A stretch of 64,000 nucleotides of DNA, taken from assembly GCF_030013595.1 (NCBI RefSeq), contig NZ_CP122768.1; one strand, 5' to 3'. Position numbers and translations under genes: made by a program. Shown here one piece after another: positions 28,105-55,427 of this stretch. Under the pieces are notes generated by a model that saw only the letters and a list, made by a program, of their open reading frames with translations, searched no databases and was not told the DNA's origin. Origin of the DNA: Escherichia coli (lineage in GTDB: Bacteria; Pseudomonadota; Gammaproteobacteria; Enterobacterales; Enterobacteriaceae). Each line of letters starts with the position of its first letter. The stretch's first letter is position 1.

Positions 28105-28192
28105 GGTGAGGTGTCCGAGTGGCTGAAGGAGCACGCCTGGAAAGTGTGTATACGGCAACGTATCGGGGGTTCGAATCCCCCCCTCACCGCCA
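28105..28192 (+). tRNA. serW: tRNA-Ser (anticodon GGA), long variable arm, CCA encoded
   Basis: GGTGAGGTGTCCGAGTGGCTGAAGGAGCACGCCTGGAAAGTG...GGGGTTCGAATCCCCCCCTCACCGCCA; acceptor stem pairs, anticodon loop CTGGAAA. Confidence 0.9.
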
Positions 28193-35905: not shown

Positions 35906-36036
35906 GAGATTTCTCCCCAAAATTAAATAAATTAATCTTAACCATCATCCGGGTAATATATATCTGAAAATATTTTCAATAACACCAGATAAGAAAAACA
36001 CCACCACAGTGGCGGTGGCGTTTCTCCGGTGTGTCT

Positions 36037-37107
36037 TTATTTAATCCGGGCCATCGCGTTTCTCAGTGCCGAATCTGCACCTTCAGTTATCTCCTGGCTT
36101 TTCTGTAATACCGCCTCTGACCGGGTCAGTGCCTGACGCGCCGCCAGTGGTTTCCGGATATGCTCCATCGTCAGCATCGTGTCCTCGTAGCCCTGCTGAC
36201 GCCAGGCGTCGATATGTGCCGACGTGAAACTGAGCAGACCGCCACTGTTGCCACCATCACCTGCATGTTTCAGCCTTTTCCGGGGACGGATTTCAAGGAT
36301 TGTGGTGTCCGGAAAAGCCCGACGATCCCATAAAGAACCGTCACTCAGATGCGTCACAATCACCATATTGCATCCGGCATCCACCAGTGGCGTCACGGGA
36401 GTATTCCCCTGCCTGTTTCGCCATCCGCCCATCCCACCATCACCGTACATTGTTCCCTGAACCTCGCGGGGACGGAACAGCAGAGGCAGCGCGGCTGACG
36501 CCAGTAAAGCTTCTTTCTGCTGCCCGCGGGGCAGACTCTGGATATGCTGAAAAACGGCGTTTTTCGTGGTTCCGGCACCCAGTTCAGCACGAATGCAGTC
36601 AATAATATCCTGCATGCCTCCTTCTGTGGGGTACAGCGACACGTACAGCGGTAGCCCGTCAGCCAGAGCATCTGTATCAAGATAATGATCCATCAGCGCT
36701 GTCAGGGGCTCATCTGACAACAGCGGCTGAATCATCGGATTGTCGAACCCGTTGATTGTCGATATATGGCGAAAAAGCGTCGTAAGCAGTGCGCCCGCAC
36801 GTCCGGGGATCTGGCAGAGGTTCATGGCCTGAACCAGTTTTTTCAGCAATGAAAAGTAAACCGATCTGTTTACCGACAGAACCTGATTATTCCCCAGATG
36901 ATCCCAGAGCGCCTCCAGGCGTAAGGTGGCTTCTGACAGATCGGGAGAGGCCGCGATAATGGCACCATTGAGAGCCCCGATACTGGCTCCTGAGACCATA
37001 CTGATCTGTGCGCCGCACTCTGCCAGTGCCTTAACCACCCCCGCCTGATAAGCGCCCACCGCTCCGCCGCCGGACAGCACCAGCCCCGTTTGCATTTCTG
37101 TACTCAT
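36037..37107 (-). CDS. Patatin-like phospholipase
   Basis: GGGAVGAYQAG oxyanion motif, GASIG serine-lipase motif (GxSxG), YGDGG Asp motif; start overlaps upstream gene stop by 4 bp. Confidence 0.8.
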   Translation of the reverse strand: MSTEMQTGLVLSGGGAVGAYQAGVVKALAECGAQISMVSGASIGALNGAIIAASPDLSEATLRLEALWDHLGNNQVLSVNRSVYFSLLKKLVQAMNLCQIPGRAGALLTTLFRHISTINGFDNPMIQPLLSDEPLTALMDHYLDTDALADGLPLYVSLYPTEGGMQDIIDCIRAELGAGTTKNAVFQHIQSLPRGQQKEALLASAALPLLFRPREVQGTMYGDGGMGGWRNRQGNTPVTPLVDAGCNMVIVTHLSDGSLWDRRAFPDTTILEIRPRKRLKHAGDGGNSGGLLSFTSAHIDAWRQQGYEDTMLTMEHIRKPLAARQALTRSEAVLQKSQEITEGADSALRNAMARIK

Positions 37108-38009
37108 GCCTCTCCCTTCTGAAATATTTCATCAACCATACTTTCAGAGAGGCGTTCTGCAGAGCAGAGACGGGGCATACGAACCGGTAAGTGTTCTGCA
37201 GCCTGCGTGGTTGACCAGATCACAGGATGCCGCTCTTCACTGCACCAGTCCCCCAGCCAGTTAACCGCTTCATGCCATTCGTTATCAGCCTGTTCCCGGC
37301 GCTGACCACCAAGCCAGTCCAGTGTGTTCAGACGTACTGTTGCGCTACCGCCACTCTCCCGTGCCATCTGCGTTAATGCTTTATATCTGAGAATATCCAG
37401 TAACTGATTAACCTGGCCTGTTTCACCCTGACGAATCACATCACCAAACGCGCCCCAGCGAAGCTCTTCAAGCGCCACATAACAACGTCCGGCAGGGGAA
37501 AATGACGCGTATCGCCCGGCGCTCCACCACGAGAATATCTGCTCAAGATGTAACTGTGCCCGCTGAACCTGGTCAACACGGTGGAGTTTTTCCTCAAGAT
37601 GATTCAGTTTCTGATGAACCTGTTCTGCCAGAGTGAGTAACTGCTCCCGCGTGTCAGCCGAATAATGCGCCAGCCTGGCAGTATCACTGACCAGTGAACT
37701 GACCCTGTCGTTTACCCGGGTAATCGCGTAGTTTGTGGTGGCAAGTGACGTTGTCAGCTCCGTCAGCCAGCGCAGGGACGCCTCAACGCCCTGTGCAAGC
37801 GACGCATTGATGGCATTCTGCCGTGCAGCGCCTTCGCCGGTCAGCCCCTCTTTTAAACGCCGGAAGAACGTGCGCTCTCCGGCCGTGCGGATATGCTCCT
37901 GTGCAACATCGATTCCGTTTGCGAAATCAACCACAAATTTTTCAGGAAGACAGGTGAGTACCTGACATACCCGGTTATCAGCAATTTGTTGAATAAATGG
38001 TGAAGTCAC
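37104..38009 (-). CDS. Hypothetical protein (301 aa) between dynamin-like GTPase and patatin genes
   Basis: ORF overlaps both neighbours by 4 bp (ATGA), implying a coupled operon; no motif recognised. Confidence 0.6.
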   Translation of the reverse strand: MTSPFIQQIADNRVCQVLTCLPEKFVVDFANGIDVAQEHIRTAGERTFFRRLKEGLTGEGAARQNAINASLAQGVEASLRWLTELTTSLATTNYAITRVNDRVSSLVSDTARLAHYSADTREQLLTLAEQVHQKLNHLEEKLHRVDQVQRAQLHLEQIFSWWSAGRYASFSPAGRCYVALEELRWGAFGDVIRQGETGQVNQLLDILRYKALTQMARESGGSATVRLNTLDWLGGQRREQADNEWHEAVNWLGDWCSEERHPVIWSTTQAAEHLPVRMPRLCSAERLSESMVDEIFQKGEA

Positions 38010-40393
38010 AGCATTGTCTCCAGCTCTTCCCTCAGCGCCTTACTGTCAGTAATGAGCTCAGGAACCCTTTCATTTAATGCCTGAAGTCGCCCGGTAAGCC
38101 GTTCCTGCGCCTGCTGATCGCGTTTATGATCTTCAGAGCTCTGAATCAGCGTGTTACGCAGTTGTTCAACTTTCTCCCTGAATGCGCAGAAAAAGGCATC
38201 GATTTCCTGGCGGACGGGCTGGTTAATATCCTGCTCAATGGATGCCTGCAGCTCCCCGAAATATGCCCGGGTCAGTGACATAACTTCCTCTCTGGCCTTG
38301 TTGATATTGATCACGCTGCGACTCACATCCTCGTCATAGTTTTCCCAGCCCAGGTCACTGGTGCCAAACCATCGACAAACGGTTCCCCATACGCCACTCT
38401 GCCGACGGCGACGGGTGACGGTCTCCGTTCTTTCCTCCATAAGCGCACTCAGATTTATTTTTACCGCGAGCCGGGTCTGTAACTGGCTGACTGCCGGAAA
38501 ACTGATTTTTACGGTAAAGCCCTCATCCTCCAGGCGGGCATTGATGCGACCGGCAATGTTTTCTGTGGCGTACAGGGCCGTGCCACGAAAACCTGTTTCA
38601 ATCCCGCTGACGATTTTCTCCAGCTCAGGCCGGAACTGTGCTTCAGCCTCACGGTGCAGGCTGGTCACGGTCGATTCGATTTGCGTCATCAGTTCAAGGG
38701 CTGCCCTGCGATCACTGAATTTTATTTCGGGGCTGTCCGGATCAAAGTCCCGCATCCTGTCATGCTGATTTCCGGTTCCGAAAATATCGTGAAAGAAAGC
38801 GAATGCGTTTCTCTCCCGGGGCTGCGCTGAATTTTCTTCCTCCAGCATTTGCTGTTCTTTGCGTTTACCGCTTCTGAAATAGTCGTTCAGCTCCTCCTCC
38901 AGTGAGGCACAGACCTTCGTCAGTAATTCCCCGGTTTTGGTATTGATGTCCTCCATGGCCATTCTGACATCACCGGTCACCTGATTCTGACATTCCTCAA
39001 TCTCCTGGATATCCGCCAGCAGGCTGGTAATATGCGCCTGTAGTGACTGAATGCTTTGCTGCAGCCCCTGATGACGTAATGACAGATATTCGCTGACATT
39101 TTCTGCATTCTGCATCAGTTTTGCGGCGGCAGAGTCAACCGCCAGTGCCGCCGCTCTGGAATGGGAGCTCTGTATGACTTCCGTTATCAGTTGATCGATC
39201 AGAGATATATTCCAGAGTTTTTCTGCCTTTTTATTTACCTTAGTGCTGTCTTTCCAGTCGTCCTCTTCCACCATAGGTCCGAAAGCTTCCCTGATAAAAT
39301 CATCGACCCAGGCTTCATCAACCGGAAGCGCACCGTTTTTTCGTAACTCATGAAGCGCACGGTTAGCCAGGTACGCCTGACGTGATGAGCCGGGATAAAC
39401 GCGGGAGGCGGGCAGCACATCGCTGTTCAGCATTGCTGGCACCTTCTGGCGTACGGCATCCGCACCATCACCATTGCGATCTTTTTCATCGAATTTATTG
39501 ACCAGCACAAACAGACGACCGGCTGAGACGTCAGCAATGGCATTAAGCTCTTTACGAACCTCCTCATCGGCTTTCGAGTTCATCTGGGTGTAATCCATCA
39601 CCGCCAGCACCGCAGAGGCTTTCTGTAGTTGATCCCGCATCATCATTTCCATCTGTGGTTGTCCGGCTTCATTAGGGCCGGGGGTATCCAGCAGTGTGAG
39701 TGTTCCCTGACATGCATCCATTCCCACCAGGTGGCTGAACGCCACGTCGATCACCGGTAGTTTCTGCACTTCTGCGTATTCGTCAAAAGGAAATTCAGTC
39801 CCCATTGCCGCAGCAAGACGAACCAGGTCATTTAACGATGCCAGTCCGGTAAAGATTTCGTCTTCCCCGTGGTATTCATTTTTAAGCCAGACATCATCCG
39901 CCAGAATATCCAGTAGTTCGCGGGTATCCCCGGTTTGCTGCAGGGACTGTGCGACTTGCTGCCCTGCCGGGGTGGCGAGTTTTTCCTGCAGTGTGATTAA
40001 TAAATTGCGGACGGGCTGAATATGTTCCAGATGGAGGACCGGTTCCGTTTTTCCGGGAACGTGGCGGATCAATGTCGGTACCGAGGTCATGGGGCGGTTA
40101 CGGTTGGGCAGAATTTCCTGCCCCACAATGGCGTTGATGGTGGTTGATTTGCCCGCCTTCATCGTGCCGACCACAGCCAGCACCATCTCCCTGCGGGCGG
40201 TTTTGATTTGTTCGCCCTCCAGCTCCTCAATTCTTTTCAGCGCTTTCCGTTTATCAAAAAGCAGCCCGTTTTCGTTCTTACTGTCAGATAACACATCCGG
40301 CTCATCAACCATTTGCCGGAGCAGATTGATATTCAGTTGCAAAAGCCGGTCGGCTTCATCACAAAGCAGGGCGATGTTCTTTTCGTGCATCAT
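38006..40393 (-). CDS. Dynamin-family large GTPase (bacterial dynamin-like protein)
   Basis: 795 aa; N-terminal G-domain with P-loop GTMKAGKSTTINAIVG, DTPG-like G3 (LLDTPGPNE), long coiled-coil-like C-terminal region. Confidence 0.75.
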   Translation of the reverse strand: MMHEKNIALLCDEADRLLQLNINLLRQMVDEPDVLSDSKNENGLLFDKRKALKRIEELEGEQIKTARREMVLAVVGTMKAGKSTTINAIVGQEILPNRNRPMTSVPTLIRHVPGKTEPVLHLEHIQPVRNLLITLQEKLATPAGQQVAQSLQQTGDTRELLDILADDVWLKNEYHGEDEIFTGLASLNDLVRLAAAMGTEFPFDEYAEVQKLPVIDVAFSHLVGMDACQGTLTLLDTPGPNEAGQPQMEMMMRDQLQKASAVLAVMDYTQMNSKADEEVRKELNAIADVSAGRLFVLVNKFDEKDRNGDGADAVRQKVPAMLNSDVLPASRVYPGSSRQAYLANRALHELRKNGALPVDEAWVDDFIREAFGPMVEEDDWKDSTKVNKKAEKLWNISLIDQLITEVIQSSHSRAAALAVDSAAAKLMQNAENVSEYLSLRHQGLQQSIQSLQAHITSLLADIQEIEECQNQVTGDVRMAMEDINTKTGELLTKVCASLEEELNDYFRSGKRKEQQMLEEENSAQPRERNAFAFFHDIFGTGNQHDRMRDFDPDSPEIKFSDRRAALELMTQIESTVTSLHREAEAQFRPELEKIVSGIETGFRGTALYATENIAGRINARLEDEGFTVKISFPAVSQLQTRLAVKINLSALMEERTETVTRRRRQSGVWGTVCRWFGTSDLGWENYDEDVSRSVININKAREEVMSLTRAYFGELQASIEQDINQPVRQEIDAFFCAFREKVEQLRNTLIQSSEDHKRDQQAQERLTGRLQALNERVPELITDSKALREELETML

Positions 40394-40500
40394 TCACCTT
40401 TATAAATTCAATAATTCAGAACTGCGGTGAACAGCAATGAGCGTCCTTTCCCATTACTGCATGAATTTTCCTGAAATCGTATTTCCGGGATACCGTATAA

Positions 40501-43721: not shown

Positions 43722-44594
43722 TCAGAAGAAAATCCAGTTCCATACAGCGCGGGCAACAGAGACCACCGTGTCACGGACGGCACGCAGAACTGTGCGTGCA
43801 ACAGAGGCAACACAGACGCTCTCCACCGTGTCAAATATCCGGTCCACCGCACCGGTAAACTGTTCACGGGCCTGCCCCCGGACAGATTCCGTGCACAGCT
43901 CGTCCTGCAGGCGGGTCATCAGGGGACTGGCGGCATGGTCGGGAAGCGCTGTCATGAGCGCACTGACCAGCGTATCCAGTTCCCAGCCGGTACGGGCCGA
44001 TACGGCAACAACCGGATGTACGGGCCGGAACAGCCGGAATACCGCATCTGTTTTTTCGCGAATGTTCTGTTCCTGTGCGGGAGAAGGCTGAATACCTGCC
44101 ATATCCCATTCATGGCAGGGCTCTGTTTTGTCGGCCTGCGTCACCACAAACAGCACCTGCTGATGTCCCCGGTGCAGTATGTGTCGCCAGAAATACTCAT
44201 CCACAGACAGGGCACGGTCATCGGCTTTAATCAGCCACAGCACCAGGTCCAGTTCAGGCAGAATGTCACGGTACAGGGCTTCATACTCTGCATCCCTGTC
44301 CCGGCTCTCGCCCACCCCGGGCAGGTCAGTGATAACCATGCTGTGACCATGGCCACTCAGACGGAAGCGCCGCACTTCCCGGGTGCCGGCGTGAACATCA
44401 CTGACCGGGGTGACCTCCCCCTGAAACAGTGCATTACAGAGTGAGGATTTACCGGCCCCGCTTTTACCCATAATGCCAATCACGGGTTCGTGACTGGTGA
44501 GTTTGCGCAGATGTTCCAGGATGTGACGGGAAAGCGAGTAAGGCAGGGAGGAGAGCGGTTTTTCAATTGCCTCAATGGCATCAGACGGATTCAT
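43722..44594 (-). CDS. YeeP/YkfA/YfjP-family GTPase
   Basis: P-loop GIMGKSGAGKSSLCNALF; conserved position upstream of Ag43 gene as in CP4-44. Confidence 0.75.
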   Translation of the reverse strand: MNPSDAIEAIEKPLSSLPYSLSRHILEHLRKLTSHEPVIGIMGKSGAGKSSLCNALFQGEVTPVSDVHAGTREVRRFRLSGHGHSMVITDLPGVGESRDRDAEYEALYRDILPELDLVLWLIKADDRALSVDEYFWRHILHRGHQQVLFVVTQADKTEPCHEWDMAGIQPSPAQEQNIREKTDAVFRLFRPVHPVVAVSARTGWELDTLVSALMTALPDHAASPLMTRLQDELCTESVRGQAREQFTGAVDRIFDTVESVCVASVARTVLRAVRDTVVSVARAVWNWIFF

Positions 44595-44820
44595 ACATGT
44601 ATTCCCGGTGAAAAAAGACAAAACCCCGCGCACCGGAAAGGTGGCGGGGGATTCACAACGATAATATCTGTCTGAAATTATTTAGGATGCAGGTATCTTC
44701 TGATAATCATACATCCCGAATTTTGTTCTTAATAGGTAACCGTCTCATTTAAACCGTCTTTCGCCTCCCTTTCCTGTTTCCGATACTAATGTCCATTTTC
44801 GCAGTAAAGGGACATTTAAG

Positions 44821-50389: not shown

Positions 50390-51028
50390 TCAGCGAACCG
50401 TCCATGCCGGGCTGAAATCCTCTTCCTGAAACAGCTCCGTCAGCCCGCTAATCTGTTTCAATCTGAGAACTTCATCCTGGTCCATACCCAGCTCCGTACC
50501 AATGCGTTCATTCGTCCAGCCCAGGCGCGACAGGTCCCTGACAATATCAGACATTGAGGTTATCTGATGTTTGCCCCTGGCCCGGTTATGTCGGATGGTC
50601 GCAGCAATACGTGAGGCCTGTCCCTTTCTCTCCGGATTAATACAGACCACCGGCAGCCAGCCCTTCAGACGTTTTCCCGTACCTGCTTCCCTGCCCAGCA
50701 CCTGGCGATGAAAACCATCCACCACCAGGTAATGGTTCTTTTCCTCAGACACCACCACCGGTTGTGTGAAACCATCTTTCTCCAGTGACTGCTTCAGCAG
50801 TTTCTTCTCACCCGGCGCCATGACATTAGGATTGTAATCATTGGCCACCACCTCATCTGCTTTTACCCACAGCACACAGTCCACTGGCTCATGTGCAAAA
50901 GGACTGACTTCATGAAGCACTCTGCGCAGGTGATTAAGGGCCTGTATGGTCTCTTCTTCTGGTCGTTCCTGGCTGAAGTACTGACGAATCATGTTGCCAA
51001 TTATCTCCGGTGTCACAGAATCCCCCAT
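50390..51028 (-). CDS. ParB/Srx-like nuclease-domain protein (IbrB-like)
   Basis: 212 aa, ...YNPNVMAPGEKKLLKQSLEKDGFTQPVVV...YLVVDGFHRQ... ParB-N-like motif; overlaps upstream gene by 16 bp. Confidence 0.65.
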   Translation of the reverse strand: MGDSVTPEIIGNMIRQYFSQERPEEETIQALNHLRRVLHEVSPFAHEPVDCVLWVKADEVVANDYNPNVMAPGEKKLLKQSLEKDGFTQPVVVSEEKNHYLVVDGFHRQVLGREAGTGKRLKGWLPVVCINPERKGQASRIAATIRHNRARGKHQITSMSDIVRDLSRLGWTNERIGTELGMDQDEVLRLKQISGLTELFQEEDFSPAWTVR

Positions 51029-52245
51029 TCCTTCCTCCTTTCTTTCATACGCTGCAGATAACGTTCATAGTGCCGGGGTTTGTTCGGACTGAAGGAGAGG
51101 GTCCGGTACCAGAAATCATTCTTTATAAGTGTCTTACAGATACGCCGCCAGGACGGAATATCCCGGCTCCCCAGGTCATTCTCCTGTTCATCCGGGATGT
51201 CATCCGGGAAGCCCCGCGTCTGATACCAGCGCAGGTAGACAGCAATTTTATTACGGTAATGTTCTGCCGTTCTTTCCGGCATCACATCCAGCAGGAACAT
51301 CGCATAGCTGCGCCAGGTATGATGGGCTGGTTTTGATATACGTTTACGCAGGGCAAAATAGGCACCGCTTTCATTGGCATAAAGCGCCCCGCTGGCAGCG
51401 CCTGACACCCGCTCACACATCCTGGCCCAGGTTTCCGGCTCCAGAACATGGTAAAGCCACAGCCCCTTACGTTGTTCAGGACCAAAAGGTTCACAGACAC
51501 GCATGTTGCGTAACGGCACGTCGGCACGGTACATCAGGTCATACAGAGGATTGTAAATGGCACAAGCTCTGGCGTTATATATCCAGATATCGCGGGCTTT
51601 CCAGTCATACAACGGATACATGGTGTAATAAAACCCTTCAGGCGATGCCGTGGTCCAGGGCTTATCATCGGCATATCTCAGTTTGCGCTGAGACACCAGC
51701 CCCATAAAGCGATTGAGGGATTCATCCGCACGAACACCGGTCAGCACTGCCACTCCACACCGGTTACCGGCAAACCAGGAAGAAAATGCCGGAACAAATT
51801 CTTCAAACGTCATGGCATACCGGAAAAAGGGAAAATATGTCATATCCGTAATGGCCTCTTCCGGTGGCTGGCGAACCCAGGTCACTCCTGGCTCCCAGCA
51901 TATCCACTCCGGCTGAAACTGCGAGACGCCGTTTACCGTGGTCAGGGGAAGTGCCACCCAGTAAAAGGTTTCCGTCACATCATGGTACATTTCCCGCATC
52001 TTCTGAATATGTTCAATGGTGCACCGATACTGGGCCTCCCAGTCAATGAACAGAACAGAGAAATGACGTTTTCTCCTGCGGGCCACCTCTGCCACAAGAT
52101 GGAAAAGCACGGTGGAATCCTTTCCACCTGAAAAAGACAGACATACCGACGGAAATGTTTCAAAAATCCACTCAATGCGGGCGATTGCAGCACGCAAAAC
52201 ATTTTCTCCGGTAAGGATTTTTTCGGTTAAAAGCGTATCACTCAT
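51013..52245 (-). CDS. PAPS-reductase-like PP-loop ATPase domain protein (IbrA-like); start at ATG 52245 with AGGAAA RBS
   Basis: PP-loop SFSGGKDS; large C-terminal extension; paired with ParB-like gene. Confidence 0.65.
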   Translation of the reverse strand: MSDTLLTEKILTGENVLRAAIARIEWIFETFPSVCLSFSGGKDSTVLFHLVAEVARRRKRHFSVLFIDWEAQYRCTIEHIQKMREMYHDVTETFYWVALPLTTVNGVSQFQPEWICWEPGVTWVRQPPEEAITDMTYFPFFRYAMTFEEFVPAFSSWFAGNRCGVAVLTGVRADESLNRFMGLVSQRKLRYADDKPWTTASPEGFYYTMYPLYDWKARDIWIYNARACAIYNPLYDLMYRADVPLRNMRVCEPFGPEQRKGLWLYHVLEPETWARMCERVSGAASGALYANESGAYFALRKRISKPAHHTWRSYAMFLLDVMPERTAEHYRNKIAVYLRWYQTRGFPDDIPDEQENDLGSRDIPSWRRICKTLIKNDFWYRTLSFSPNKPRHYERYLQRMKERRKEWGIL

Positions 52246-52745
52246 TTTCCTGGCTTTATGTCGAATAATTCTGTTTATACATTCAGGCAAACTTCATTAA
52301 TAACTCACCGCTTTGGGGATAAATAATAACAACAAAAATCTTCAGATATTAACCTGGTTGTTGGATTTGTTATCACATCCTTTATCCACCTGCTTCTTAC
52401 TGGTAACACACCTGGAAAATCCATGCATTTTCAACATATACTATCCTTTCAACTTGTAAATAAGAAAATATGATGCAGATGGTGAACAATTCAAATATCA
52501 TTTTGCAGGAAGTATTCACTGTAATAGAATTACCCCCTGATAAAGTTTATTCACTAAGGAATTATTCAACAGAAACATTCCCTGTTAGCTTTGAGCAATA
52601 GCACTTATTTTTATATGTATCAGGAATACGTACGTTGATGTAACCAAAACAAAGAAGCCTGTGTCCATGGGGTTCGTACAATTGTGTGTGGCACATGACC
52701 AAATCAGGTTTGAGACCTCCCGCTGCAATATTTTTTATTCAGATT

Positions 52746-55427
52746 TTAGCCTGTCAGGCCTGACAGAAACGCTCCCAACTTCCCTTCTATATCACTGTCT
52801 ATAGTACGTAATCTTAGCAATGGCAGGCCGCATTTCTTCAGTATACTGTTTTTAAGTTCATCACGTTCAGCCTGAACACTGGTCAGATGATAACCTCCAT
52901 CCACTTCAATAACCCCTAATGGAGTCTTCCCGACCTTATAGTAAACAACAAAGTCACAACTGGCCCGGTTACGCATGAATAACTGTTCACGGTGTGTAAA
53001 ATCCCCCCGCTCCAGCGACACCAACTGATTCAGCGCTATTTGTGAATGAAACATCATACTCCGATAACTATCCTGCGACAGGATATCCCGCAACAGGCAG
53101 GCCACAATCTGTTCTGACTTAAAGTGTGAATCATTTGAATTCAATCTACTATTCAGTCGTTCCAGTGATTTGTCATACTCACTGTACAGCAAATCAAATG
53201 CTGATATGACCGGGCTCTCGAAAATCTCTCCGTCATCAGCGTAGTATTTGATGTAACGAATCAGCGCCGCAATATGTCCAGCGTGGCGTTCAAATACATC
53301 ATTACCAGTCACCAGCGTAAATTTATTTCGGGCCCTTGAAACAGCGACATTCACCAGTTCAGGATTATCAACAAACGCGATGTTCCGACTGTGCTGGCTG
53401 CTGCGCTTCTTATCCAGCACAGTGGAAAACACAATTTCATCGCACTCCCGTCCCTGAAATTTATGCACCGTCGATTTCACAAAATCAGCAGGCAGCACTT
53501 TTTCAGCCAGATTAACCTGTGCATTATATGGGGCAATGTATCCCCTGCTACTTTCTTCATCCCAGTAATGACCTTCCAGAGATTCAAGCTCCCTGAGATT
53601 TGAAAAATTACGGGTATGGTTTCCTTTTGCCGTGATGACCAGAGATAATGAGGCTTCACCGGAATCAACCGTTAACGGTATCAGAGCATTATCATAAAAC
53701 TGCTTATTACAAAATTGAATGATTTTAGGATGACAACGATAATGCTCTTTAAGAAGGGTTACTGGCACCATGTTCCTGAACAACATACAAACCGAATCAA
53801 GTAGACTATATTTCTCACAATTATAGTATTCTGCCGGTGGAGATGGGCTGTTCGGGAGTAATACAGGAACATGTGGAAGTTGCTTACGATCCCCTACAAC
53901 GATTACATTACGGGCACATCCCAGTCCCAGAATGCCCGGAACAATATCCTGCTGCGAGGCTTCATCAATAATAACATAATCAAGAAGGGCCCCCTTGCCG
54001 ATAGAGTTAATAATCGAATGCGTACTGCTACCAATAATCGGAAAACGCTTTATAAAACGGTCAAATTCATCCCTGTATGTCTCTGCCGAGAATGAACTTC
54101 TTGTTGAAACATTTCTTCGCAGATGTTGCTTTAAATAAAGCATAGACCATGATGTCAGGCGCCCCAGTAAAATTTTAAAATCAGATTTTTTAAATACTTC
54201 CTCATATTCATTCAGAGAAATTTGTTTTTCCCGGATATTTTTTTCATAATAAGAAAGCTGAAGAGAAGTAAATAGCGCCAGCCTTCTCTCCGGAATCATC
54301 AATGGTTTGACTTTCAGTATCATGAAGTTTAACAACAAATCAATTCTGTTTCTGAATCCAATCCGCCTGTCAGAAAGGTAATGAATATAAGCCATCAGGT
54401 CGGTTGTTTTTTGTGAGGAAAATCGGTATTTGTGAGAAAAAAGCTCCTCCGGTCGAAGATTCTGACTCTGCCATTGCTGCAGGTATTTATACTCAATATT
54501 CAGCTCATTAATTTCTGCTTTTAACGAAGCGACCTGGTTAATGGCATTCAGGTGTTTTTTCACTTGTTGAAGTACATCATCAATCGCATTTGCAGACGGT
54601 GAGTCAGGTAAGACTTCCTCAGAACGCGAAATCGACGTTGAAAAAAACTGTTGCCTGTTCCCCGTACTCCCCAGTCGTGCCATCACATATCCCAGTTGCT
54701 GTTTGTCCATCTTTTCATAAACATTACTGACAGCTGAGTTATTATTGGACAAAATTGCCACTGTTTTATTCTGAATTAATATATTAGCAACAATATTGAG
54801 TATAGTCTGTGTTTTACCTGTTCCAGGTGGTCCTTCAATAACTGAAATCTGTGAGGAAAATGCCCGTTCGACAGCCAGCAACTGACTTTCATTAAGACCA
54901 AACGGAAAAATCAAACCCCATGGCGAATCACGTTTTTTACTCTGTCCTGAACAGTATGCATGCAAGGCGGTATCCGGATGAGGAACTATTTTCTTTATCT
55001 GCCTAAGGATATTCTCATCGATATTTCTGTTATTACCACGGGCATAAAAAATACGTTCATTAGCCACCCTACACAAGTAATTAAACACGGCATGCTCTGT
55101 AAATGCTGAACACTGTTGAAAGTCAAGGCCGGTCGTTTTCATGATGTAGGGTCGTTCACCCTCGCGGTAATAAACAGCAGCATATTTATCACCATATATA
55201 ATAACCAGTTCAGCCCGGGATGTTACAGCGTTCCCTTTCCTTTCGAGGAAAACATTTCGCAAATTTACAGTTGGCGTTATCTGACATACAGAAAGCGGAC
55301 GAGTATATTTTCTCCCGCTGCGAAAATGACAGGTCAGCATAACCTCTCTGTCGTCATTTCCAGCCCACAGCGTCCAGTCGGTAATTTTATGAGTCTTATT
55401 TTCACCGTCAACACAAATCGTGACCAT
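52746..55427 (-). CDS. Superfamily-1 (Upf1/DNA2-like) helicase with unknown N-terminal domain and C-terminal restriction-endonuclease-like domain
   Basis: Walker [11 protein letters not shown], Walker B IIDEASQ, motif VHKFQGRECD; C-terminal ...VYYKVGKTPLGVIEVDGGYHL...ERDELKN... endonuclease-like signature. Confidence 0.75.
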   Translation of the reverse strand: MVTICVDGENKTHKITDWTLWAGNDDREVMLTCHFRSGRKYTRPLSVCQITPTVNLRNVFLERKGNAVTSRAELVIIYGDKYAAVYYREGERPYIMKTTGLDFQQCSAFTEHAVFNYLCRVANERIFYARGNNRNIDENILRQIKKIVPHPDTALHAYCSGQSKKRDSPWGLIFPFGLNESQLLAVERAFSSQISVIEGPPGTGKTQTILNIVANILIQNKTVAILSNNNSAVSNVYEKMDKQQLGYVMARLGSTGNRQQFFSTSISRSEEVLPDSPSANAIDDVLQQVKKHLNAINQVASLKAEINELNIEYKYLQQWQSQNLRPEELFSHKYRFSSQKTTDLMAYIHYLSDRRIGFRNRIDLLLNFMILKVKPLMIPERRLALFTSLQLSYYEKNIREKQISLNEYEEVFKKSDFKILLGRLTSWSMLYLKQHLRRNVSTRSSFSAETYRDEFDRFIKRFPIIGSSTHSIINSIGKGALLDYVIIDEASQQDIVPGILGLGCARNVIVVGDRKQLPHVPVLLPNSPSPPAEYYNCEKYSLLDSVCMLFRNMVPVTLLKEHYRCHPKIIQFCNKQFYDNALIPLTVDSGEASLSLVITAKGNHTRNFSNLRELESLEGHYWDEESSRGYIAPYNAQVNLAEKVLPADFVKSTVHKFQGRECDEIVFSTVLDKKRSSQHSRNIAFVDNPELVNVAVSRARNKFTLVTGNDVFERHAGHIAALIRYIKYYADDGEIFESPVISAFDLLYSEYDKSLERLNSRLNSNDSHFKSEQIVACLLRDILSQDSYRSMMFHSQIALNQLVSLERGDFTHREQLFMRNRASCDFVVYYKVGKTPLGVIEVDGGYHLTSVQAERDELKNSILKKCGLPLLRLRTIDSDIEGKLGAFLSGLTG

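Follow-up and report, generated by a model that had tools for sequence, protein, structure and literature searches.

A 64,000-nucleotide (nt) stretch of an Escherichia coli genome (contig NZ_CP122768.1, here called the window) carries three overlapping minus-strand genes that encode a dynamin-like GTPase, a partner protein of the RdcB/YjcZ family and a patatin-like phospholipase. We describe here that these genes form an obligately linked cassette, the trio, whose products belong to defined protein families, keep their catalytic residues, evolve under purifying selection, travel on islands and plasmids and are cytoplasmic by prediction. Judged by sequence, the cassette appears to be a diverged RdcA/RdcB-type pair with an added patatin phospholipase and not a relative of LeoA/Eleos. 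We tentatively propose that it is, quite possibly, a self-contained, horizontally mobile GTPase-controlled phospholipase with a conflict-related role. Coordinates are those of the whole 64,000-nt stretch; calling and translation of open reading frames (ORFs) gave proteins of 795, 301 and 356 amino acids (aa). The features referred to in the text are the following:

38006..40393, minus strand: gene of the dynamin-like GTPase, RdcA/CrfC lineage (795 aa; RefSeq start at 40390)
37104..38009, minus strand: gene of the RdcB/YjcZ-family partner (301 aa; its GTG start overlaps the dynamin stop codon, GTGA)
36037..37107, minus strand: gene of the patatin-like phospholipase, predicted cytoplasmic (356 aa; its ATG overlaps the stop codon of the RdcB-like gene, ATGA)
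40145..40168, minus strand: codons of the P-loop (G1) GTMKAGKS, aa 76-83, invariant in the family
38306..38440, minus strand: predicted stalk tip, aa 652-696, a beta-hairpin plus short helix in the AlphaFold2 (AF2) model, RRRR...GVWGTVCRWF...GW
36976..36990, minus strand: codons of the nucleophile motif GASIG (Ser42), read from the sequence, invariant across taxa
36433..36441, minus strand: codons of the catalytic DGG (Asp223), read from the sequence, invariant across taxa
35999..36017, minus strand: terminator-like hairpin with an 8-bp stem (5 GC pairs), then the T-run TTTTTCTTAT, from a consensus scan
40394..40500, minus strand: spacer of 107 nt from the stop codon of cah to the start of the dynamin gene; ribosome-binding site AAAGGTGA

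Linkage of the three genes across species

One genome per species (GTDB representatives) was scanned with an alignment of the RdcB family, which yielded 79 loci. These fall cleanly into two classes, 29 loci of a trio type and 50 of a core type. A patatin gene lies directly downstream of the RdcB-like gene and on the same strand in all 29 trio-type loci, and the dynamin gene is found upstream wherever the contig reaches far enough. None of the 50 core loci contains a patatin, and all of them represent Enterobacteriaceae orthologues of RdcA/RdcB. The initial annotation, which was drawn from the letters of the window alone, had made its proposal of a functional unit depend on such a conserved neighbourhood, and the trio does co-occur in the same order in every one of these trio-type loci from different species. 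This recurrent gene order is more than chance. The most common geometry at both junctions among these loci is a 4-nt overlap. Trio-type loci occur in Escherichia albertii, Pantoea, Erwinia and Budvicia, in eight Pseudomonas genomes, in Allochromatium, Thiodictyon, Macromonas, Aquaspirillum, Comamonadaceae and Paenacidovorax, and also in Gallionella, Yanghanlia, Pontibacterium, Marinospirillum, HdN1 and several metagenome-assembled genomes (MAGs).

An exhaustive profile search among 1.84 billion proteins returned only 498 representatives of the RdcB family. The most distant members inspected (P0385, P0375 and P0358) keep the order Dynamin_N, YjcZ, Patatin, and no swapping of the effector was found among the distant RdcB relatives inspected. 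Correspondingly, searching for homologues of the RdcB-like protein and, separately, of the patatin led to the same taxa and in many cases to contigs of the same length. The patatin is a constant and integral partner of the trio, not a swappable effector. No conserved fourth gene was found in the trio loci; the sole recurrent neighbours are WYL regulators, and these in a minority of the loci.

The three proteins and their operon

The initial annotation had recognized a dynamin-type G domain in the product of the first gene, which was confirmed by the presence of GTMKAGKSTTINAIVG at aa 76-91 and by a profile search that returned Pfam Dynamin_N at E = 5.4e-18. The NCBIfam model CrfC (NF007368) matches the GTPase over its full length (residues 2-794) with 566.7 bits against an equivalog cutoff of 1146, and BLASTP aligned it over its full length with K-12 RdcA at 33% identity (E = 9e-124). 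Residues G76-S83, the G2 Thr103, the G3 motif DTPG (236-239) and the G4 motif NKxD (299-302) are invariant in 38 family sequences, so that both K82 (the G1 Lys) and T103 (the G2 Thr) are kept throughout the alignment. In the AF2 model (predicted local distance difference test, pLDDT, 79), the G domain is followed by a long helical stalk, and Foldseek matched this model over its full length to SynDLP (6.7e-13), BDLP (7.7e-13), IniA, Campylobacter DLP1/2 and the mitofusins MFN1/2. As modelled, the GTPase would therefore have the architecture of the BDLP/mitofusin class, with a G domain, a helical stalk or trunk and a tip element. The tip segment contains on average 6.8 aromatic and 7.3 Lys/Arg residues in trio-type proteins, compared to 3.9 and 4.9 in core RdcA, and the basic, Trp-rich tip of the model is a possible membrane-interface element. 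Opposite 'PQLALPW' of the K-12 protein, the presumed position of the CrfC beta-clamp motif, the N-terminal segment has the non-conserved sequence 'ENGLLFD'. The trio GTPase of a MAG labelled Synergistaceae (L027:1290-6356) is a 1,688-aa tandem fusion with Dynamin_N at 102-329 and again from 941, which fits with a GTPase that works as a dimer.

The middle protein had been described in the initial annotation as lacking any recognizable motif. This did not hold, as Pfam YjcZ (PF13990) covers it at E = 1.9e-69 with model positions 1-272 of 272, and RefSeq already assigns it a family name, 'diguanylate cyclase regulator RdcB family protein'. For trio copies, this product name is probably misleading. 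The protein shares 31% identity with K-12 RdcB (E = 4e-38). Its AF2 model is all-alpha (pLDDT 77, predicted template modelling score 0.80), and a structure search with this model found no informative solved relative.

The third protein matches Pfam Patatin (PF01734) at E = 5.7e-24, and the three catalytic motifs that had been read from the sequence, GGGAVG, GASIG (Ser42) and DGG (Asp223), are all present. Across 30 sequences, residues G13-G15, G40xS42xG44 and D223-G224 do not vary, and the C-terminal extension beyond the Pfam domain is conserved as well. With the oxyanion Gly, the GxSxG Ser and the DG[GA] Asp in place, the protein can be assigned to the patatin-like phospholipase family as a putative lipid acyl hydrolase. 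Its N-terminal ~60 residues around GGG/GxSxG match the patatin domains of PlpD, VipD and ExoU, and the similarity is limited to that part. An identity with CapV, RssA or VpdC was considered and rejected, all three lying far below the curated cutoffs. All three cassette proteins are predicted to have neither a signal peptide nor a transmembrane helix, and because of this the lipase is predicted to be cytoplasmic and to face the cell's own inner membrane.

In E. coli K-12, RdcA (YjdA/CrfC) and RdcB (YjcZ) form a GTPase partner system of the diguanylate cyclase DgcE (PMC6510439). The RdcA GTPase forms dimers, binds RdcB and attaches to DgcE at its MASE1 membrane domain, and DgcE is activated by direct contact in a GTPase-dependent manner that requires K82 and T103 (PMC6510439). 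The cassette pair falls within the RdcA/RdcB family in the broad sense, having full-length RdcA homology, the G1 Lys and G2 Thr, and a YjcZ partner encoded immediately downstream. It does not consist of orthologues of the DgcE regulators, since 566.7 bits stay below the cutoff of 1146 and the phn-yjdM-rdcAB-proP synteny is absent. The initial annotation had instead pointed to LeoA/Eleos-type systems. When PADLOC models were run on the three cassette proteins, no model for the cassette was found and all matches were marginal; LeoBC reached just 23 bits (E = 9.2e-6) with no stretch passing alone, and LeoA did not match at all, so that this kinship was rejected.

The positions of the three minus-strand genes and their 4-nt overlaps, as initially annotated, were borne out by the ORF list of the window (38006..40393, 37104..38009 and 36037..37107) and by RefSeq. 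The RefSeq annotation of E. coli UMNK88, whose sequence is identical to the window across the 4.6-kb query, lists these three genes as well and sets the start of the dynamin gene one codon further downstream, at 40390. Both junctions had been given as ATGA, which is correct for 37104..37107, whereas 38006..38009 reads GTGA and provides a GTG start. Shine-Dalgarno-like sequences, GGAG / GGGAGAGG, are located within the 3' end of each upstream gene, and the terminator-like hairpin begins 20 nt past the patatin stop. The proposal that the genes are co-expressed as an operon is supported by the overlaps, by the hairpin (36017..35999) and by co-regulation in RNA sequencing of another strain (PMC12922286). 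As a consensus scan found neither a sigma-70 consensus nor a terminator in the 107-nt spacer between cah and the dynamin gene, we infer that transcription occurs by read-through from cah or from a non-consensus promoter. Homology with the E. coli island copies of 93% identity stops at ~40400, on the 5' side of the dynamin gene, and the promoter therefore lies outside the conserved cassette; at the other end, homology with other E. coli island copies stops just past the hairpin, at ~35952.

Islands, plasmids and evolution

Counting copies with at least 80% of the query covered, the trio is present in 2,442 of 5,426 complete E. coli genomes (45%), with up to five copies per genome. The true core rdcAB pair is present separately, in 5,404 of the 5,426 (99.6%); the two coexist and are not redundant. 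In a family of tRNA-linked E. coli islands, the trio takes up a single position, immediately upstream of a DUF932-antirestriction-JAB-DUF987-CbeA/CbtA block, and island trios occur in enterotoxigenic (ETEC), enterohaemorrhagic (EHEC) and uropathogenic (UPEC) strains, in islands of the pathogenicity type. The island location given in the initial annotation agrees with the RefSeq context and the tRNA-Ser island of the window. Likewise, its upstream autotransporter Ag43 is named by RefSeq as the Ag43 homologue Cah, and the trio follows cah both in the window and in O157:H7. The link to Ag43 that this implied could not be maintained as an obligatory one: the trio of strain S1-KEN-05-A is not beside any Ag43-type gene, all copies outside E. 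coli are without Ag43, and the cassette also occurs in Pseudomonas, in Betaproteobacteria and on plasmids.

Plasmid carriage comprises 46 plasmids, among them conjugative IncFII plasmids of Klebsiella, plasmids of Enterobacter and two Nostoc plasmids. A search of phage genomes found no trio. On one Klebsiella IncFII plasmid (L084:7009-10004), the insertion sequence (IS) IS1 abuts the 5' end of the dynamin gene and an IS30-family element follows the patatin gene; the dynamin is annotated there as just 743 aa, and an N-terminal truncation is possible.

Between diverged E. coli alleles, the ratio of nonsynonymous to synonymous substitution rates (dN/dS) is 0.10-0.21 for all three genes, and intact copies of the trio are under purifying selection. 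A minority of the E. coli copies is decaying. The E. coli homologue clusters contain many truncated or fused RdcB-like and patatin proteins, including patatin fragments of 262 aa and 238 aa, which count hundreds of members, and a single copy interrupted by an IS (H24). The window allele itself is mosaic. Its dynamin gene equals that of the O157:H7 copy (L083; 0 differences in 2,385 nt), while the RdcB-like and patatin genes differ from this copy with synonymous divergences (dS) of 0.16 and 0.24; an identical dynamin beside diverged neighbours therefore indicates a recombination breakpoint near the first junction, at ~38006. In evolved lines of E. coli ATCC25922, 'crfC' and 'rssA' received 122 and 75 variant calls, far above other genes (PMC7696260), an excess that probably reflects mis-mapping of reads among multiple island trio copies and not real selection. 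An IS26 transposon in 'yjdA' has also been reported, and the paralogue meant is not stated (PMC6331395).

Trees were built by neighbour joining with midpoint roots and carry no support values. Trios of Pseudomonas interleave with betaproteobacterial trios, and horizontal transfer is therefore indicated. The GTPase tree places the core RdcA clade together with the Budvicia trio dynamin; the RdcB tree has the core proteins as a long-branched sister group to all trio sequences. Because the trio is taxonomically broad and the two-gene form is restricted to Enterobacteriaceae, the two-gene DgcE regulator may, as a hypothesis from these sequences, have derived from the trio by loss of the lipase.

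Several further elements of the window belong to the surroundings of the cassette. A tRNA-Ser(GGA) gene at 28105-28192 (plus strand) separates ghrA/csg from the island, immediately adjoins the island's first gene (DUF4942) and looks like the site of island integration. Upstream of cah, a YeeP-type GTPase gene at 43722-44633 (minus strand) is frameshifted in UMNK88 and intact in O157:H7, and its product gives a weak LeoBC match of 31 bits. The UMNK88 RefSeq record has ~1.1 kb, with the hypothetical gene UMNK88_RS06280, that is absent from the window at ~44634-44820, by which downstream features are shifted by ~1105 nt. At 52746-55427 (minus strand), an 893-aa AAA/helicase is matched in part by the PADLOC models for Mokosh MkoA/MkoC (147 and 137 bits) and for PDC-S37. 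It adjoins a PAPS-reductase/IbrB-like gene pair (51013-52290 and 50390-51028), and this region may be a second defence-like module of the same island.

Possible function and relation to known systems

The combination of the three genes had initially been taken as undescribed. It is indeed functionally uncharacterised and has no PADLOC model, but a 2026 transcriptomics paper on lysogens (MP1) points out the same trio and calls it a putative defence system, proposing this role by analogy with Eleos (PMC12922286); moreover, two of the proteins belong to a named family that is in part characterised, and the trio as a whole is annotated routinely. The authors of that study found no literature that links dynamins to phospholipases (PMC12922286). 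As a candidate for membrane remodelling or defence, the cassette stands as an uncharacterised module of interest, although it is less novel than first thought.

Our proposal starts from the analogy with RdcA/RdcB acting on DgcE, because of which we suggest that the cassette pair gates or positions the lipase. The RdcA-lineage GTPase would dimerise and bind the RdcB-like protein, as has been shown for K-12 RdcA/RdcB, and the complex may associate with the inner membrane via the basic, Trp-rich tip. In a GTP-dependent manner, it would then gate or position the phospholipase, whose Ser-Asp dyad is intact, and the gated enzyme would hydrolyse phospholipids of the cell's own membrane. The role would most likely be conflict-related, because the cassette is mobile, accessory and partly found in a defence-island context, and it would serve the carrier islands and plasmids by abortive infection or by reacting to membrane damage when phages attack. 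The two-gene RdcA/RdcB-DgcE system of Enterobacteriaceae looks, from this perspective, like a lineage-restricted derivative that lost the lipase. A more far-reaching version, in which the trio is the ancestral RdcA/RdcB form, a GTP-gated phospholipase that provides Proteobacteria at large with an immune module for abortive infection or membrane integrity, and in which RdcA/RdcB-DgcE is its domesticated lipase-less derivative, appears rather doubtful to us.

The genomic neighbourhood contributes to the conflict-related reading. Only the three trio genes are conserved, and outside E. coli the flanks differ in almost every lineage; recombinase, integrative and conjugative element or helicase genes flank some of the loci, others have polA or miaA. 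Of the 29 trio loci, 9 (L006, L010, L011, L013, L014, L020, L022, L024 and L026) have ORFs for WYL-domain (BrxR/CapW-like) regulators at a distance of a few kb at most, as against 0 of 50 core loci; this comparison has no formal background control, and the syntenic core loci count effectively as one observation. The WYL gene is directly upstream on the same strand in L026 and divergent in L020 and L024. A full BrxC of the bacteriophage exclusion (BREX) system lies near the trio in L004 and an SNF2/ZacB-like module in L005/L030; the methylase and specificity subunit of a type I restriction-modification system follow 179 bp downstream in L020, and in L031, 85 bp separate the trio from the downstream gene of the candidate-system protein PDC-S24. 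Taken together, defence-gene enrichment around the trio in a sizeable minority of lineages is suggestive.

Several points weigh against a conflict-related GTPase-controlled lipase, beyond the limited reach of the WYL count. Several trio loci have no defence neighbours at all and some copies sit beside the housekeeping genes polA or miaA, and the effector never varies, unlike in many modular defence systems. The only characterised relatives, RdcA/RdcB, act in signalling by cyclic di-GMP (c-di-GMP) and not in defence (PMC6510439). For one of the two trio copies in the lysogen study, multi-mapping was flagged by the authors (PMC12922286). A functional test of the trio was not found in the literature searched, and a dynamin/patatin system is not mentioned in the main text of the DefensePredictor paper or of the domain-centric E. 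coli defence screen. Finally, that the complex is physically coupled to the lipase and that the tip binds the membrane are steps that we infer, as are the trigger and the outcome, be it cell death or repair; the hydrophobic moment of the tip helix (rank 114 of 784) does not support reading it as strongly amphipathic.

Some of the same evidence could be accommodated by membrane maintenance without suicide, in which the dynamin seals or remodels a damaged inner membrane like B. subtilis DynA, the lipase removes or reshapes lesion lipids, and the cell survives, with phage protection arising from delayed lysis. The BDLP/mitofusin-class fold with its basic, aromatic tip, the DynA-like two-headed fusion in L027 and the DynA-type population-level protection cited in the lysogen study (PMC12922286) would agree with this, and a constant effector fits an integrated machine better than a sensor with swappable toxins. 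Yet K-12 RdcA was described as a soluble signalling GTPase and not as a membrane remodeller (PMC6510439), and a repair function of constitutive use should be part of core genomes rather than of islands and plasmids that have WYL regulators. We therefore regard maintenance as unlikely.

A role in c-di-GMP signalling, with the island pair as a second RdcA/RdcB that activates DgcE or another MASE1 enzyme and the patatin as an accessory or additional output, is suggested by family membership and by the island of the window, which adjoins the csg curli locus whose expression is controlled by DgcE. However, this adjacency merely reflects insertion at tRNA-Ser (serX), and other copies are located elsewhere. 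The identity is 31-33% with the core pair alongside in 99.6% of E. coli genomes, the trio always includes the patatin and occurs in unrelated contexts in Pseudomonas, Betaproteobacteria and Chromatiales, and the tip, the region most divergent between the classes, is the likeliest surface for partner or membrane contact. This renders a signalling function improbable. We judge the cassette to be just as improbable as an addiction or stabilisation module, in which the GTPase/RdcB-like complex restrains a phospholipase toxin and loss of the island or plasmid kills segregants. Carriage on plasmids and integrative islands beside toxin-antitoxin genes such as CbtA/CbeA would suit such a module, as would a lipase that is predicted to be cytoplasmic and potentially self-toxic, but three large proteins of 1,450 aa in total are unusual for it, some copies are chromosomal beside housekeeping genes, and there is no hint of differential stability of the components. 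The matches to PlpD, VipD and ExoU and the location in pathogenicity-type islands of ETEC, EHEC and UPEC would speak for a virulence phospholipase like ExoU or VipD that is exported to eukaryotic host cells and has the GTPase pair as its chaperone or regulator. This is highly improbable, as those matches span only the first ~60 residues around GGG/GxSxG, no secretion signal or linked secretion system is present, and the trio also occurs in free-living Gallionella, Allochromatium, Thiodictyon and Macromonas.

The trio locks a bacterial dynamin-like protein to an enzyme of clear chemistry, phospholipid hydrolysis, and to a partner with a tractable K-12 relative, and so provides experimental access to what such dynamins do. 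With ~45% of E. coli genomes, islands of O157:H7, ETEC and UPEC, and plasmids of Klebsiella and Enterobacter, it is also among the more common uncharacterised accessory operons of clinically relevant Enterobacterales. If the cassette served in defence or against membrane stress, the gating of a lipase by a large GTPase would constitute a new control principle, and the RdcA/RdcB-DgcE input into biofilm formation would be recast as a derivative of a mobile conflict module.

Compared to known systems, Eleos (LeoA plus LeoBC) shares bacterial dynamin-like GTPases and the island location with the cassette, but combines several dynamins and lacks both the YjcZ partner and the lipase. ExoU, VipD and PlpD have the same patatin catalytic motifs; the cofactor-activated lipases of the ExoU/VipD type are inactive until a protein partner binds. 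Unlike the cassette enzyme, which resembles them in ~60 N-terminal residues only, these enzymes are secreted and act on eukaryotic membranes. Type I cyclic-oligonucleotide-based anti-phage signalling systems (CBASS) with CapV likewise encode a cytoplasmic patatin-like phospholipase beside its controller, and WYL regulators of the CapW/BrxR type are sometimes adjacent. However, the CBASS lipase model NF041079 gave 16.6 bits against a cutoff of 200, the cassette operon contains no cyclase gene, and its control would be exerted by a protein GTPase complex and not by a cyclic nucleotide. B. subtilis DynA and the BDLP/SynDLP/IniA class resemble the GTPase in the predicted fold over the full length and, for DynA, in the tandem fusion of L027, whereas sequence similarity is restricted to the G domain and these proteins work with no partner of the RdcB type and no lipase of their own. 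Closest is RdcA/RdcB itself, with which the cassette shares both protein families, the gene order and the 4-nt overlap found in K-12, the G1 Lys and G2 Thr, a dynamin N-terminal half followed by a long helical half, and a soluble partner of ~300 aa. It differs from this pair in its identity of just 31-33%, in its score below the equivalog cutoff (567 vs 1146 bits), in the translationally coupled patatin gene (29/29 vs 0/50 loci), in the more basic and aromatic tip of its GTPase and in being accessory and mobile where the K-12 pair is core and syntenic; its target enzyme would presumably be the lipase and not DgcE.

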